Assembly (NCBI GenBank): GCA_963697235.1
Contig: CAVONJ010000004.1
Coordinates: 48,781-112,780 of the forward strand
Source: an uncultured Planctomycetota bacterium
Lineage (GTDB): Bacteria; Planctomycetota; Phycisphaerae; Phycisphaerales; SM1A02
DNA length: 64,000 nt
Reading direction: 5' to 3'
Position numbers and translations under genes: made by a program. Positions 21,484 through 31,024 of this stretch are shown here, one piece after another. The notes beneath the pieces are model-generated. The model saw only the letters and a list, made by a program, of their open reading frames with translations. It did no database searches and was not told where the DNA came from. Numbering within the stretch: the first letter of the stretch is position 1; each line of letters opens with the position of its first letter.

Positions 21484-22373
21484 GTGCTGACGTTGATGGC
21501 CCAGATCATCGACTACGCCGGGCTCTTTCCGCCGGCCGGACTCGACATGGCGACGATGGTGCGCAACTACGCGGCGTACACCGCAAGGCGACGATGCGTC
21601 GATGCTGGGTCGGCTGATCGTTCCCGTCGCGCGCCTCGACGAGTTCGAGCAGTGCGCCGGCTCGCTGCTTCCCCGCGGCCACGAGGACGAGCCGTGGCAT
21701 CTGAGCGGCTTGACCGCGCCGGCCGGAGACTCGGCGCTGGTGGGGCAGCTCGAGCGGATCGAGACCTTCAATCAGGCGCACGAGGTCCCGGCGTCGGGCC
21801 TGGCCCGGATCGACGTCCTGGAGCTGAAGGCGGATGGAGCAGAGGTCATCGAAGCGGCCCTGGACGAGATTCCCGATGCGCTCTTTCCCGTTCTTCGAGC
21901 TGCCGATCACCGCGGACCCGCGCGGCCTCCTCGCCGCGCTCGTGGGCTCGGACGCGGGGGCGAAGGTGCGCACGGGTGGCGTCGCCGCCGACCTCTATCC
22001 CGATCCGGGGCACCTGGCCCGGTTCATCGCCGCCTGCGCGGCCGCCCGCGTGCCCTTCAAGGCCACGGCGGGGCTGCACCATCCACTGCGCCACTTCTCG
22101 CAGGCCGTGCAGGCTCACGAGTTCGGCTTCCTCAATGTCTTTGTCGCCGCGGCGCTGTCCATGCACGGGGAGTTCGACACGTCGCAGCTCCTGTCCGTGC
22201 TGACCGACGAGCGCATCGAGTCGTTCGGCTTCGACGATGAGGGAATCGCGTGGCGGGGCGAGATGGTGACGGTCGATCAGCTCGAGCGCTCCCGTGAGCT
22301 CCTGGCGATCTCGTTCGGTTCCTGCTCCTTCGACGAACCGCGGGCGGACCTCCGCTCGCTTCATCTGCTCTGA
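21484..22373 (+). CDS. Conserved hypothetical protein (family not recognised), 2 frameshifts; ends 29 bp upstream of fah
   Basis: MTLMAQIIDYAGLFPPAGLDMATMVRNYAAY...LIVPVARLDEFEQ...VPFKATAGLHHPLRHFSQ...FGFLNVFVAAALSMHGEF...WRGEMVTVDQLERSRELLAISFGSCSFDEP. Confidence 0.4.
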
Positions 22374-22401
22374 TCCTCTTTCCTTGCCCGGTACTGAGTT
22401 C

Positions 22402-23726
22402 ATGCTCGATCACACCCACGACCCCTCCCTCCGCAGCTGGATCGAGTCCGCGAACGATCCGGCCGGCGGACTTCCCGATCCAGAACCTGCCCTTCGGCGT
22501 CTTCCGCAGTGACGGCAGCGCCGCGTCGCCGCGGATCGGTGCGGCGATCGGCGAGCGGGTCTTCGACCTGCGGGGCGCGGCGGAGGCGGGTCTGCTGGCC
22601 ATGCTCGCAAGAGGAAGTCCGCGCGGCGCTGCGGGAAGAGACGCTCAACCGCTTCTTGGCGCTCGGTCATCCCGCATGGACCCAGACGCGGCAGGCGATG
22701 TGCGAACTGCTCGCGGCAGCGAACACGACGCTTCAGGCGGATCGCGCCCTGCGCGATCGACTGATCTTGCCCCGGGACGGCATCGAGCTGCTGCTGCCGG
22801 CGCGCATCGGCGACTACACCGACTTCTACGCGTCGGTCCACCACGCGACGAACGTCGGCACGCATGTTCCGCCCCGACAACCCGCTGCTGCCCAACTACA
22901 AGCACCTGCCGGTCGGGTACCACGGCCGGGCGAGCTCGATCGTGGTCAGCGGCACGCCGAGTTCGCCGGCCCATGGGGCAGACTCAGGCCGAGGACGACC
23001 GAGCCGCCGATCTTCGGCCCGAGCCGGCTGCTCGACTACGAACTCGAGATGGGCTTCTTCGTCGGTCCGGGCAACGCGATGGGGCGGCGCATCACGATGG
23101 CCGAGGCGCGCGCGCACATCTTCGGCATGATCATCGTCAACGACTGGTCCGCCCGCGACGTGCAGAAGTGGGAGTACCAGCCGCTCGGCCCGTTCAACGC
23201 GAAGAACTTCGCCACGACGGTCAGCCCCTGGGTCGTGACGCTCGACGCGCTCGCGCCGTACCGGGTCCCCGGACCGCCGCGTGCGGCGGACGATCCGCCG
23301 CTGCTCGACTACCTCCGGCCCGCCGACGACATGGCGCTGCGAGATCACGGTCGAGCTGTATCTGCCAGTCGCAGATGATGAAGGAGCGGGGGCTCGCAGC
23401 CGGTTCGCCTGAGCCGGGGCGCTTCGACGACATGTACTGGACCATCGCCCAGATGCTCGTCCATCACACCTCGACCGGCTGCAACATGCAGCCGGGCGAT
23501 CTGCTGGCCAGCGGGACGATCTCGGGAACGACCCCCGATGCAACGCGGCTGCCTGCTCGAACTGACCTGGCGGGGACAGAACCCGATCGACCTGCCCGAC
23601 GGCACGCAACGCAAGCTCCTGCAGGATGGCGACGAGGTGATCATCAGGGCGTTCTGCGAGAAGCCCGGCGCTGCGCGCATCGGCTTCGGCGAATGCCGCG
23701 GCGTGGTGCTGCCGGTGATCGAGTGA
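22402..23726 (+). CDS. fah: Fumarylacetoacetase (fumarylacetoacetate hydrolase), at least 6 frameshifts
   Basis: [13 protein letters not shown]...[19 protein letters not shown]...[17 protein letters not shown]...[15 protein letters not shown]...[31 protein letters not shown]...[53 protein letters not shown]. Confidence 0.8.
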
Positions 23727-23884
23727 CCAACGGTCGGCTCGAATCGGATATTTCTCCCACCGGGAGAGGTCGGCGAGCAAAGCGAGCCGGGTGAGGGCGG
23801 ACTGCGTCGATCGTTGGTTGCGCAACGGGTGTGTGTGTACGCGCCGCACGCACATGATGGACCAGCGCGCACCAGTTCGCGCTC

Positions 23885-23985
23885 GCAGGCGACACGCGAC
23901 GTTCGCCCTCACCTGGCTGGTCCCCGCGAGCAGGCGCGGGACCAGCGGTCCTCTCCCGGGTGGGAGAGGAGCTTCACTCGAGCCG
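23885..23985. repeat. Structured extragenic repeat, family 1, copy A (two hairpins)
   Basis: gacacgcgacg..gccctcacctgg..gtccccgcg-agcag-gcgcgggac..cctctccc-gggt-gggagagg. About 90% identical over ~85 bp to copy B at 26953..27060. Lies between the convergent ends of fah and the DUF1573 gene. Confidence 0.6.
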
Positions 23986-28910: not shown

Positions 28911-29312
28911 ATGGTCGCGCATTTAGGAATGACCACGGCGAAGCTGCTTGCACAGCTTCGCCGGATGTTCCCAGAGCTTCAAGTCGAGCCCGGCTATTGG
29001 ACGGCTCAAGTCGACGAGCTGGAGGTCTATGTCGTCGCCGATGAGCACGAAGATCGCTTGCGTATCTTGGTGCCGGTCGCGCGGGCGGATCGATTCGACG
29101 CTGATCTGCTGTGGGTCCTGTTGCTCGCGAACTTTCAGCTCGCTCTCGACGCGCGATACGCCGTACAGGATGGGCTCGTCTGGTGCGTGTTCGTCCACCG
29201 GTTGAGCTGGCTGACCGAGGTGGAGGTCGAGAACGCGCTCTGCAACGTGCTGAGCCTGGCGCGAAACACGGGAAGCAGCTTCAGCAGCAGCGACCTGGTC
29301 CTGGACGGGTGA
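28911..29312 (+). CDS. YbjN-like / type III secretion chaperone-like small cytoplasmic protein
   Basis: Strong RBS GGAAGGAG then ATG. 133 aa, acidic; LEVYVVADEHEDRLRILVPVARADRFDADLLWVLLLANFQLALDARYAVQDGLVWCVFVHRL resembles the YbjN/CesT fold. Tentative. Confidence 0.4.
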   Translation: MVAHLGMTTAKLLAQLRRMFPELQVEPGYWTAQVDELEVYVVADEHEDRLRILVPVARADRFDADLLWVLLLANFQLALDARYAVQDGLVWCVFVHRLSWLTEVEVENALCNVLSLARNTGSSFSSSDLVLDG

Positions 29313-29397
29313 TGAAGCACCCGCCGGCGAACCCGGAGTCTCAACCGAGCATTTGGGCTACCATTCCGCTCTCTCACCACGAAATGAAGGAGCGGCC

Positions 29398-29784
29398 ATG
29401 CCCCGGATCACCATCATCGTCGGCGCCCTGCTCACCGTGCTCGGTCTGGTGGCGTACGTCTTTCTGAGCGAGGCGCCTCGAAGCATCACGGCCATGATCC
29501 CCGCGTTCTTCGGCGTTCCGCTGATCGTCCTCGGCTGGCTCGGTGCCCGTCCCAACCTGCGGAAGCACGTGATGCACGGCGCGGTGCTCCTCGGCGTGCT
29601 GGGCGTGGCCGGCACCGTTCCCGGGCTGCTCAAGCTCCCGACTTTGCTCAGCGGCGGCGAGGTCGCGCGGCCGACGGCGGTCGCCGTCCAGTCGATCATG
29701 GCGGCCATCTGCGTGGTCTTCGTCGTCCTTTGCGTCCGGTCGTTCATCGCCGCCCGTCGGGCGGCGCCGCAAGCTGACTCTTGA
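29398..29784 (+). CDS. Small integral membrane protein (4 predicted TM)
   Basis: RBS AAGGAG then ATG ([22 protein letters not shown]...). 128 aa. Confidence 0.5.
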
Positions 29785-29823
29785 AACAAACGTCATCAAC
29801 CCAGCCGCGGTGCAGCCCGGCGA

Positions 29824-31024
29824 TCAAAGATTCCCGCGCCGCTCCTGCTCCCGCTCCAGCGACTCGAACAGCGCCTTGAAGTTGCCCTTGCCGAAGCTCT
29901 GGCTGCCGCGGCGGCAGATGATCTCGAAGAAGAGCGTCGGGCCGATCCTGGAGCGGCTTCGTGAAGAGCTGCAGCAGGTAGCCCTCGTCGTCGGCGTCCA
30001 CGAGGATGCCCAGGTCGCGGATCTTCTCGTGGTCCTCCTTCACCTCCCAGCCCAGCTTCTCCACGCGACTCCCAGACCTCGTCGTAGTACGCGTCGGGGA
30101 TCGTGCAGGAAGTCCACGCCGCGGCGCGCGCAGCTCCGCCACCGAGCGCGAGCTCGTCGTCGGTGCGCAGCGCCAGGTGCTGCACGCCCGGCGTCATGTC
30201 GTGCCACTCGAGGTACTCGAGGATCTGGCTCTTCTTCTTGCCCGTCGGCCGGCTCGTTGATCGGCATCTTGATCAGGTGGTTGCCGGAGGCCATCACCTT
30301 GGACATCAGGGCCGAGTACTCGGTCGAGATGTCCTTGTCGTCGAAGTGCTTGAACATCGTGAAGCCGAGCACGTTCTCGTACCACTCGACCCAGTCGTTC
30401 ATCTTGCCCTCTTCGACGTTGCCGACGCAGTGGTCGACGTACATCAGCCCGCACGGGTGCTTGCGGTTGTAGTCGTTGAGCGCGAAGTTCTCGACCTTCG
30501 TGGAACTTCGGGGCGAAGAGCCCGCCGCCCTTCAGGGTGTCGAGCGCGTAGTCGCCCGCGCGGCTGACGAAGCTGTGCACGGCGCGGCCGTAGGTCTGGA
30601 TGCCCGCCATGACGACCGTGCCCCGCTCGTCGGTCAGCTCGCGCGGCTCGTACGCCGACTCGCCGCCGTTCCGCACCGCCGTCTCGTAGGCCGCCGTCGC
30701 GTCCTCGACGGTGAGGGCGATGTCCTTGACGCCGTCCCCGTAGCAGCATGACCTCCCGCTGCGCGGGCTGCCGTGCGTGCAGGCCCGTCGTCAGGAGGAG
30801 CCGGATGTTGCCCTGGGTCAGCAGGTAGCTGGCCTCCTCGCGGCTGCCGGTCGTCAGGTCGGCAGATCTGGTCCACCTGGAACCCGAAGGTGTGGGCGTA
30901 GAACGATCGCCGCCTGCTTGGCGTTGCCGACGTAGAAGCGAACGTGATCGACGTCGATGAGATTGAGCGGATCGACGGCGGTTGCCTTCTTGGGACGTGA
31001 ACTGGGTGTGCTGGCCGTGCTCAT
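29824..31024 (-). CDS. hppD: 4-hydroxyphenylpyruvate dioxygenase, at least 4 frameshifts
   Basis: N-terminus [15 protein letters not shown]. Middle [24 protein letters not shown]...[19 protein letters not shown]-terminus [28 protein letters not shown]; the encoded ...[18 protein letters not shown] end was confirmed by reverse-translating 29824..29880. Confidence 0.8.

Follow-up and report, generated by a model that had tools for sequence, protein, structure and literature searches.

Gene X, described here from a 64 kb stretch of DNA (the window), adjoins fah, the gene for fumarylacetoacetase (FAH), in at least nine bacterial phyla and fills the isomerase slot of homogentisate clusters in which only an isomerase is missing. 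Its product is a member of a very large protein family that is unnamed in every source searched. Because the family adjoins fah in these nine or more phyla at the place where the missing isomerase is expected, X is a strong candidate for this enzyme. Sequence comparison makes it rather probable that X is a glutathione-independent maleylacetoacetate isomerase that uses a cysteine of its own. A wider proposal, whose chances we put at about even, is that X represents a new family of TIM-barrel maleylacetoacetate cis-trans isomerases acting without a low-molecular-weight thiol, through its own invariant cysteine and perhaps aided by a lysine providing iminium activation; that it is the gene responsible for the homogentisate pathway that runs without glutathione in Gram-positives and in many other bacteria outside the proteobacteria; and that it is a non-homologous replacement for the GST-zeta enzyme in at least nine phyla.

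In the textbook pathway by which tyrosine and phenylalanine are broken down, one step belongs to maleylacetoacetate isomerase, and to our knowledge the glutathione-dependent GST-zeta enzyme is the sole such isomerase known at gene level. Many bacteria without glutathione synthesis still carry HppD, HmgA and FAH. Glutathione-independent homogentisate and gentisate pathways were reportedly found in Bacillus and other Gram-positives in the 1970s and 1980s, and we know of no identification of the maleylacetoacetate enzyme of these pathways. If our proposal is correct, X would fill a pathway gap in Planctomycetota, Acidobacteriota, Gemmatimonadota, Bacteroidota, Chloroflexota, Bacillota, Actinomycetota and some Cyanobacteria, thousands of ‘hypothetical proteins’ would receive a name, the aldolase-like TIM barrel would gain a new reaction type, and a cofactor-free isomerase would become available for engineering of the tyrosine/homogentisate pathway. 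The idea is directly testable since family members are present in the cultured and tractable Priestia megaterium and Streptomyces.

Gene X and its neighbours in the window

X starts with GTG at 21484 and stops with TGA at 22371-22373 (Table 1). An initial annotation of this DNA had placed here an unknown gene for a protein of about 295 amino acids; a conserved gene is present, but not as an intact reading frame, as the interval is 890 nt long and not divisible by three. Removal of two single-base insertions yields 295 codons and a stop, and homologs align over the full length of the corrected product, with one surplus residue evident at the first frame break. All three protein motifs quoted in that annotation were found in the sequence. 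The public record of X (P0067) is a 179-aa ORF, 21834-22373, containing the same frame error. The assembly is rich in indels across the window, such that X, fah, hmgA, hppD, gltX and glnS are all frame-broken. As even the essential genes gltX and glnS cannot be read without switching frame, the breaks in X, fah, hmgA and hppD point to assembly error and not to pseudogenes.

Table 1. Positions in the window of gene X, its frame breaks, its conserved codons and the neighbouring genes
Feature	Position	Strand	Description	Basis
Gene X	21484..22373	+	Candidate glutathione-independent maleylacetoacetate isomerase, uncharacterized TIM-barrel family	Three-frame reading and homolog alignment
X frame break 1	21586 (about)	+	Surplus A in CAAGG, between ...AAYTA and GDDASML	
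X frame break 2	21888..21890 (about)	+	Surplus C in CCC run, between ...DALFP and FFELPIT	
Lys161-Val162-Arg163 codons	21963..21971	+	Motif AKVRTGG, predicted strand beta-6	
Lys193 to His199 codons	22059..22079	+	Motif KATAGLH, predicted strand beta-7 and next loop	
Cys281 codon	22323..22325	+	Motif FGSCSF, end of predicted strand beta-8; proposed nucleophile	
fah (fumarylacetoacetase)	22402..23726	+	28 bp from the end of X to the fah ATG, same strand; frame-broken	tblastn, Pfam, ortholog TIGR01266
hmgA	27097..28384	-	Short divergent homogentisate 1,2-dioxygenase type; frame-broken	tblastn, Pfam on ortholog
hppD (4-hydroxyphenylpyruvate dioxygenase)	29824..31024	-	Several frame breaks	tblastn; L004 ortholog passes TIGR01263
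gltX and glnS	17945..21406	+	Directly 5' of X; both frame-broken; context, not pathway	

The presence of hppD, hmgA and fah, as initially annotated, was confirmed with tblastn, Pfam and orthologs, but none is an intact ORF and hmgA is of a short, divergent type. A fragment of fah from the window hits both Pfam FAA_hydrolase_N and Pfam FAA_hydrolase, and the X-linked FAH ortholog is a bona fide fumarylacetoacetase, the intact sequence from locus L004 passing the NCBIfam equivalog TIGR01266 with 582 bits (cut-off 375). Intact Planctomycetota orthologs used as tblastn queries detected hmgA at 54-68% identity in three frames. An intact ortholog of this gene reaches 65 bits where TIGR01015 requires 510, yet passes Pfam HgmA_N and HgmA_C and has 45-51% identity to the hmgA that PGAP annotates in Priestia, Streptomyces and Kovacikia. 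Thus X co-occurs with fumarylacetoacetase, homogentisate dioxygenase and HppD in the window, as it does across phyla. A PTPS domain was also recovered (about 3062-3463, minus strand); its proposed link to an aromatic amino-acid theme found no support, and a search of the 64 kb window for a phenylalanine hydroxylase gene gave none.

Linkage of X to fah across bacteria

Synteny was examined in 80 species-representative loci, of which 76 had enough downstream sequence to be judged. The co-occurrence of X with fah and hmgA, suggested initially as a check, held across phyla: fah lies immediately 3' of X on the same strand in 56 of the 76 loci (median gap approximately 18 bp; no more than 30 bp in 41 of them) and 0.5-2.4 kb 3' of X in eight more, with no fah within 6 kb in the remaining 12, all from Planctomycetota. 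The X-fah loci include members of the Planctomycetota, Acidobacteriota, Gemmatimonadota, Chloroflexota, Bacteroidota and Ignavibacteria. Larger clusters, including those of cultured Priestia, Streptomyces and Rhodococcus, have the order hppD-hmgA-X-fah in Acidobacteriota, phhA...hppD-hmgA-X-fah in Blastocatellales, hppD-X-fahA-hisC-hmgA-permease in Priestia megaterium, hmgA-X-fahA-CoA transferase A/B in Streptomyces and hmgA-X-fahA in Rhodococcus, while hmgA and hppD are divergent from X-fah in the cyanobacterium Kovacikia. One natural-looking fusion (P0236) joins X to the N-terminus of FAH through a Pro/Glu/Ala-rich linker. Linkage of X and fah in many phyla is therefore physical and probably also translational.

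The initial annotation had found no GST-like maleylacetoacetate isomerase gene, and our searches agree. When all six frames of the 64 kb window were searched by tblastn, two GST-zeta MaiA queries and a further GST query gave no hit at a threshold as loose as E <= 1, and no GST-zeta maiA was found in 93 comparison loci (85 plus 8 extra). Among plasmids, the taxa carrying X and those carrying maiA do not overlap, with maiA in 236 records, for which every listed genus belongs to the Pseudomonadota, and X in 24 records, none of them from Pseudomonadota. Conservation of the X-fah pair, the clusters, the fusion, the lack of GST-zeta in the loci and these plasmid distributions all support the earlier suggestion that X is a non-orthologous isomerase or another enzyme of this pathway.

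Two points on thiols count against a glutathione-free isomerase reading. A cyanobacterium, which presumably makes glutathione, carries X. A maiA or a thiol-dependent isomerase of the DinB type may also lie outside the loci searched; in Streptomyces albidoflavus, a KEGG-style annotation places an enzyme of the mycothiol-dependent maleylpyruvate-isomerase family in the tyrosine pathway (PMC11012174).

Family, predicted fold and conserved residues of X

At least 7986 homologs of X were detected in a first search, and among sequences clustered at 50% identity 5542 clusters match X with E <= 1e-3, 2542 of them with E <= 1e-30. Members are called ‘hypothetical protein’ in every source searched, bar one UniRef ‘Aldolase’. 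That X belongs to no recognized family was borne out by a profile and structure search of the kind initially proposed: hmmscan gave no match at E <= 1 in Pfam or NCBIfam, and the X profile had 0 hits at E <= 10 among PDB sequences. The AF2 model (pLDDT 91.8) is an aldolase-type (beta/alpha)8 TIM barrel with an inserted subdomain of approximately 70 residues between beta-7 and beta-8. Class I aldolases are the best structural neighbours of this predicted fold, and DHODH, GMP reductase and aldo-keto reductases are among the weaker matches.

Conservation was assessed in 145 diverse family members, using the numbering of the corrected product. The invariant set consists of one Cys, two Lys, Arg, His and two Glu, with K161 retained in 143/145 members. 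Cys281, the single invariant cysteine, is present in 145/145, including members from Bacillota and Actinomycetota, as is R163; K193, T195, H199 and D10 are likewise invariant. According to predicted strand order, which involves no superposition, all the invariant polar residues (D10, E114, E139, K161, R163, K193, T195, H199, C281 and S282) map to strands of the barrel or to the loop after a strand. With Cys, Lys, Arg, His and Glu among them, this set resembles an active site.

Comparisons with known enzymes place X outside each of their families. The GST-zeta enzymes (MaiA/HmgC/GSTZ1, EC 5.2.1.2) have the reaction and pathway position proposed for X and the same genomic slot by fahA and hmgA, as in phhA-hppD-hmgA-fahA-maiA of Sphingobium, hmgA-fahA-maiA of Roseomonas and fahA-maiA of Acinetobacter. 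The proposed chemistry is also the same, namely addition of a thiolate to C2, bond rotation and thiolate release. In contrast, there is no relation in sequence or fold (thioredoxin-like GST fold versus a predicted TIM barrel), the thiol is glutathione in GST-zeta but would be the protein's own invariant cysteine in X, and the taxonomic ranges differ, no Pseudomonadota having been seen for X. Membership of GST-zeta was rejected, as X has no GST_N or GST_C match at E <= 1 and a predicted (beta/alpha)8 barrel.

The class I aldolase DERA (DeoC) has the aldolase-type TIM-barrel fold that is predicted for X, and the nearly invariant Lys161 is on the sixth predicted strand and may correspond to the Schiff-base lysine that DERA has on beta-6. 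Identity, however, is only 10-14%, AGLHH and GSCSF stand in place of the Gly-Gly and Ser-Ser loops that bind phosphate, and there is no Pfam DeoC match. We rejected X as a DeoC homolog on this hmmscan result and on hhalign against E. coli DeoC, which gave a probability of <1% and an alignment out of register.

Maleate cis-trans isomerase, a cofactor-independent member of the Asp/Glu racemase superfamily in which an enzyme cysteine is the nucleophile on the maleyl double bond, is the mechanistic model for X; fold and substrate differ and sequence similarity is absent. X was rejected as an enzyme of this type, having a predicted TIM barrel and one invariant Cys versus a catalytic cysteine pair. 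The mycothiol- or L-cysteine-dependent maleylpyruvate isomerases (DinB/MDMPI) are the glutathione-independent analogue in the Gram-positive gentisate pathway; they differ from X in their DinB four-helix fold, their need for a low-molecular-weight thiol and their substrate, maleylpyruvate, and with no DinB_2 or MDMPI_N Pfam match X was not assigned to them.

Proposed reaction and competing roles

In our preferred reading, X would be a cytoplasmic (beta/alpha)8 barrel enzyme of about 295 aa, acting between homogentisate dioxygenase and fumarylacetoacetase in bacteria where the glutathione-dependent GST-zeta isomerase would be missing, and converting 4-maleylacetoacetate to 4-fumarylacetoacetate by cis-trans isomerization. 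Arg, Lys and His residues may hold the two substrate carboxylates, and polarization of the C4 carbonyl might come from a Schiff base with K161 or K193, or else from a metal bound on E114, E139, D10 and H199. The Cys281 thiolate would add reversibly to C2 of the enone, in the role of the glutathione thiolate in GST-zeta and of the enzyme cysteine in maleate isomerase; rotation about C2-C3 and elimination would then deliver the trans product to FAH. DERA provides a precedent, in that a Schiff base arises between crotonaldehyde and Lys167, followed by Michael addition of Cys47 (PMC6244999).

X-adjacent and maiA-adjacent FAHs have 78 conserved columns in common and no column that is fixed differently, a comparison that includes only three maiA-linked sequences. 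The same trans substrate is therefore expected for the X-linked FAH. Our literature search found no report of expression or knockout of X on tyrosine or phenylalanine. The gene context of X fits the isomerase step and another FAH-tied step alike.

An unlikely alternative is that X serves the pathway in some other way: it might be a keto-enol tautomerase, scavenge reactive maleyl- or fumarylacetoacetate, or accompany FAH as a non-catalytic partner. Slow non-enzymatic isomerization of maleylacetoacetate can occur when thiols are present, and a partner protein would also be consistent with how tightly X is coupled to fah and with the single fusion. HmgX, a protein of unknown family and mechanism that is encoded in a fungal tyrosine-degradation cluster and required by the pathway, shows that accessory proteins exist in homogentisate clusters (PMC3203155). 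Compared by description, however, HmgX is a 256 aa factor for the HppD step that is found only in ascomycetes, and those fungi keep maiA; its gene adjoins hppD, whereas X adjoins fah. The isomerase is, moreover, the only step missing from X operons, and the active-site-like arrangement of invariant residues on the predicted strands argues against a non-catalytic or accessory role.

We regard as improbable an ene-reductase bypass, in which X would reduce the C2=C3 bond of maleylacetoacetate and FAH would cleave the resulting succinylacetoacetate to succinate and acetoacetate, making an isomerase unneeded. The gene context is equally compatible with such a bypass, reductases that depend on NAD(P)H or flavin are numerous among TIM barrels and occur among the weaker fold matches of X, and the invariant residues of X include Asp-Tyr, Lys and His. 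Nevertheless, X matches no nucleotide- or flavin-binding family, its best structural neighbours are aldolases and not reductases, and X-linked FAHs lack residues fixed differently from those of maiA-linked FAHs. It is very improbable that FAH hydrolyses maleylacetoacetate directly, leaving X to act as a maleate cis-trans isomerase or hydratase on the released maleate. Gene order does not set reaction order, the invariant Cys of X resembles the nucleophilic cysteine of maleate isomerase, and an isomerization-free hydrolytic route exists for maleylpyruvate (HbzF); but the linked FAHs pass TIGR01266 and agree with maiA-linked FAHs at conserved sites, and the predicted fold of X is unrelated to that of Asp/Glu-racemase-type maleate isomerase.

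Finally, a function unrelated to tyrosine catabolism, for example a tRNA-related or housekeeping one within a gltX-glnS-X arrangement, is already strongly disfavoured and scarcely credible: X and the end of glnS share 4-8 nt at two loci (L001 and L004), the first without a following fah, but adjacency to gltX and glnS is limited to some ten loci from close Phycisphaerales, a restriction that marks these genes as context, whereas adjacency to fah occurs in all phyla sampled.

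Genomic context of X and distribution of GST-zeta isomerases

The unnamed conserved gene directly upstream of fah (here X) is encoded in at least 590 species when each is represented by a single genome, and the genes around it leave little doubt that it is functionally tied to fumarylacetoacetase (FAH) and the homogentisate pathway. The best 80 loci came from Planctomycetota, Acidobacteriota, Gemmatimonadota, Chloroflexota, Bacteroidota and Ignavibacteria, and 76 of them had enough downstream sequence. In 56 of these 76 loci fah lies directly downstream of X on the same strand, with a median gap of ~18 bp (30 bp or less in 41 pairs, several overlapping), and in eight it lies 0.5–2.4 kb downstream; the other 12, all from Planctomycetota, have no fah within 6 kb. 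Unbiased clustering of the ORFs neighbouring X ranked fah first and hmgA, the gene for homogentisate 1,2-dioxygenase (HGD), next, and no GST cluster was found among these neighbours. The first two loci had suggested gltX-glnS-X as a functional unit. This was rejected because gltX and glnS adjoin X only in about ten close Phycisphaerales relatives, whereas the adjacency to fah spans phyla.

Six types of cluster place X within the pathway: hppD-hmgA-X-fah in Acidobacteriota; phhA...hppD-nitroreductase-hmgA-X-(160 aa)-fah on a Blastocatellales contig; hppD-X-fahA-hisC-hmgA-amino acid permease on Priestia megaterium plasmids; hmgA-X-fahA-CoA transferase A-B on a Streptomyces plasmid; hmgA-X-fahA on Rhodococcus rhodochrous pNit; and, in Kovacikia minuta (a cyanobacterium), X-fah transcribed divergently from hmgA and hppD. 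In these clusters the route from tyrosine or homogentisate to fumarate and acetoacetate (or acetoacetyl-CoA) is fully covered bar the isomerase, and X is the sole unassigned gene. A database protein of 512 aa (P0236) consists of X, a Pro/Glu/Ala-rich linker of ~90 residues and a genuine FAH N-terminus, and ends at a contig edge.

The initial annotation had remarked on the lack of a GST-like maleylacetoacetate isomerase, and this held within the 64-kb window, where GST-zeta queries (two MaiA proteins and another GST, from proteobacterial hmgA-fahA-maiA clusters) had no match in any frame at E ≤ 1 (tblastn). No GST-zeta was detectable in 85 X loci or in eight extra loci. Co-occurrence of X with fah and hmgA, which the initial annotation had proposed to check in genomes lacking maiA, was found at loci across phyla. 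Among plasmid records, MaiA (E ≤ 1e-20) was present in 236; the ten genera with most records are Pseudomonadota, as are all 40 records of an even sample. X was present in 24 (Streptomyces, Priestia, Rhodococcus, Pseudonocardia, Kovacikia, Nonomuraea and Tsukamurella), none of them from Pseudomonadota; these matches cover X and were confirmed by alignment. All six Priestia plasmids carrying FAH also carry X. Escherichia coli K-12 is not known to have the homogentisate pathway, yet annotated maiA (GST-zeta) is found on some E. coli plasmids (NZ_CP042296.1 and NZ_CP144932.1).

Several lineages have additional genes beside X or fah. On the Streptomyces plasmid (locus L094, 9048-10429), fahA is followed by genes for CoA transferase subunits A and B, which would activate the released acetoacetate; hmgA-X-fahA-ctfAB would thereby form a self-contained unit leading from homogentisate into central metabolism. 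The 160-aa protein between X and fah in Blastocatellia (loci L090, 8907-9389, and L071, 3548-4021) has a P-loop-like N-terminus (MIILLNGSINAGKST) and no Pfam match on record. A 157-aa thioredoxin-like gene (Thioredoxin_7/DsbH) lies directly upstream of X-fah in loci L081 (636-1085), L089 (7531-8004, overlapping X by 4 nt) and L091 (7513-7986). Its product could serve to keep a catalytic cysteine reduced, or its position could be a coincidence; it was rejected as a general partner of X because it occurs in these three Bacteroidota loci only and is absent from other lineages.

Family, fold and conserved residues of X

X had been described as belonging to no recognized family, and searches agreed: neither Pfam nor NCBIfam gave a match at E ≤ 1, and the family profile had no match among PDB sequences at E ≤ 10. 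The family includes at least 7986 homologs among 8000 candidates scored, and an exhaustive profile search gave 5542 clusters (50% identity, E ≤ 1e-3), 2542 of them with E ≤ 1e-30. Nearly all members are 285–330 aa long, and in all sources they are named 'hypothetical protein', with the sole exception of one automatic UniRef 'Aldolase'. One database protein (P0157, 545 aa) has an Rce1-like CAAX protease membrane domain ahead of X, possibly because two gene calls were merged.

An AlphaFold2 model of X (pLDDT 91.8, pTM 0.89) has eight beta/alpha repeats, with an inserted subdomain of ~70 residues between strands 7 and 8. Comparison of this model with the PDB (Foldseek) returned generic TIM barrels only (best E 1e-3, TM ~0.4). 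DERA is the closest structural neighbour, without significant sequence or profile homology. Against E. coli DeoC, hhalign gave only a non-significant, out-of-register profile alignment; the resemblance is therefore structural only, and a motif match made by eye is retained solely as a structural analogy.

Conservation was analysed in 145 cluster representatives, 36–55% identical to the X protein of the window (numbered here on the frame-corrected sequence). Among polar residues, D10, Y11, R44, E114, E139, K161, R163, K193, T195, H199, H200, R271, C281 and S282 are invariant or nearly so, with Cys281 present in 145 of 145. A core of D10, E114, E139, K161, R163, K193, T195, H199, C281 and S282 is kept in the X proteins of Bacillota and Actinomycetota (29–35% identity). 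By DSSP strand assignment, the first seven of these core residues are on predicted barrel strands 1 and 4–7, with H199 after strand 7 and both C281 and S282 after strand 8. This strand order suggests that the conserved residues are laid out as in the usual TIM-barrel active site.

Proposed assignment of X to the isomerase step

Adjacency to fah and the slot occupied in the clusters are strong comparative evidence for the earlier proposal that X is a substitute isomerase or another pathway enzyme, as a candidate function. Gene context alone cannot order reactions, and we therefore compared the FAHs encoded beside X (47 sequences) with those linked to maiA (three sequences only). The groups have 78 conserved columns in common and none fixed differently, and the identity between them (50%) equals that within the maiA-linked group (n=3). 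Judged against only three maiA-linked sequences, the X-linked FAHs show no sign of a different substrate (maleyl- or succinylacetoacetate). An isomerase acting upstream of FAH is for this reason favoured over a reductase or maleate route involving X, in which FAH would take succinyl- or maleylacetoacetate. X is probably, if with moderate confidence, a maleylacetoacetate isomerase.

In GST-zeta the glutathione thiolate adds at C2 of the substrate, and in maleate isomerase an enzyme cysteine plays the same role. Isomerization of maleylacetoacetate by GST-zeta occurs with glutathione present (PMC10950700), and DERA binds an enal as a Lys167 Schiff base, after which Cys47 adds to the beta-carbon (PMC6244999). 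In X, a single predicted barrel contains an invariant cysteine as well as invariant lysines, histidines, glutamates and an arginine. The most economical mechanism, which we put forward as a proposal, would be addition, rotation and elimination at Cys281. The carboxylates of maleylacetoacetate would be held by R163, K161/K193 and H199/H200, and activation of the C4 carbonyl would come from iminium formation with a lysine or from a metal bound by acidic residues; Cys281 would then add at C2, the C2-C3 bond would rotate and Cys281 would leave.

Reports from the 1970s and 1980s described homogentisate and gentisate pathways independent of glutathione in Bacillus and other Gram-positive bacteria. 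No account of the X family, or of a maleylacetoacetate isomerase other than a GST, was found by full-text literature searches. We rate the pathway and the reaction as known and, as the new element, the proposed catalyst from an unrelated, uncharacterised enzyme family. A Flavobacterium study gives only HPPD, HGD and FAH for the pathway (PMC9063278), and the tyrosine-metabolism genes in a Streptomyces study include one for a mycothiol-dependent protein of the maleylpyruvate isomerase family (PMC11012174). Such a protein is a possible alternative in Actinomycetota. Fungal HmgX was set aside as an analogue of X because it is tied to hppD rather than fah.

Pathway genes and reading frames in the window

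Features of the window discussed in the text
Feature	Position	Strand	Remark
ORF of unusual composition	884-1525	-	first-position GC 0.43
Long PTPS/QueD-like ORF	3056-4132	-	
PTPS domain	~3062-3463	-	Pfam
X	21484-22373	+	890 nt
First frame break in X	~21586	+	extra base in CAAGG
Second frame break in X	~21888-21890	+	extra base in CCC
fah	ATG 22402 to 23726	+	start 28 bp after X stop
DUF1573, DUF192 and small secreted proteins	23974-25715; 25849-26406	-	between fah and hmgA
hmgA	27097-28384	-	short divergent type

The hppD, hmgA and fah genes named in the initial annotation are real, as indicated by Pfam and NCBIfam matches and by identity to orthologs; their reading frames are not intact. Fragments of fah match FAA_hydrolase_N and FAA_hydrolase, and an intact ortholog (L004) passes the NCBIfam fumarylacetoacetase equivalog (582 bits against a cut-off of 375). 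The hppD ortholog passes TIGR01263. The hmgA gene is 54–68% identical to Planctomycetota orthologs of 390–410 aa and represents a short type (~385–410 aa, ~25% identity to canonical HmgA) also found in loci L013, L017, L055, L062 and L093-L096. The intact ortholog in L017 passes Pfam HgmA_N and HgmA_C, reaches only 65 bits where TIGR01015 requires 510, and is 45–51% identical to counterparts labelled by PGAP as homogentisate 1,2-dioxygenase (Priestia, Streptomyces) or cupin-domain protein (Rhodococcus), or unannotated (Kovacikia). Both the short and the canonical HGD types are found together with X. The small secreted protein encoded between fah and hmgA has a C-terminus resembling a PEP-CTERM anchor, and nine related loci from Planctomycetota also have a DUF192 gene downstream of fah.

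None of the listed pathway genes is an intact ORF in the window, each being split over several frames. Three-frame translation of 21400-22420 places the X product in frame 1 as far as ~21585, in frame 2 as far as ~21889 and thereafter in frame 0, closed by the TGA at 22371-22373, with two single extra bases, both in short homopolymers. Removal of both leaves 295 codons. Homologs align with the stitched protein over its full length, apart from one surplus residue at the first junction. Searches with intact orthologs from a related locus (tblastn) showed that frame switches are also needed in gltX, glnS, fah, hppD and hmgA, so that all six genes checked in the indel-rich stretch 17945-31024 require them. 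As gltX and glnS encode essential aminoacyl-tRNA synthetases and are equally broken, we attribute the breaks to assembly errors rather than gene decay, and a pseudogene reading of X, whose breaks are 1-nt homopolymer insertions, was rejected. The public record carries the same frame error: it holds a 179-aa piece of X, a database protein (P0067) on a 748-kb contig that is exactly ORF 21834-22373. Gene calls from this record will come out fragmented.

A PTPS gene in the window had been taken to fit an aromatic amino-acid theme. The domain is real, but the link to aromatic amino-acid catabolism is unsupported and was rejected, since no phenylalanine hydroxylase gene (phhA) was found in the 64-kb window. 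The Pfam domain accounts for no more than the last 134 residues of the long PTPS/QueD-like ORF, whose N-terminal region matches no family. The open frame at the start of the window has a composition unusual for this genome, and its product is rich in Cys, Trp and Lys and includes WVYWACDGVKGKVTDQKKCQTDMWQCFVDWCVCTGVCTPDQ.
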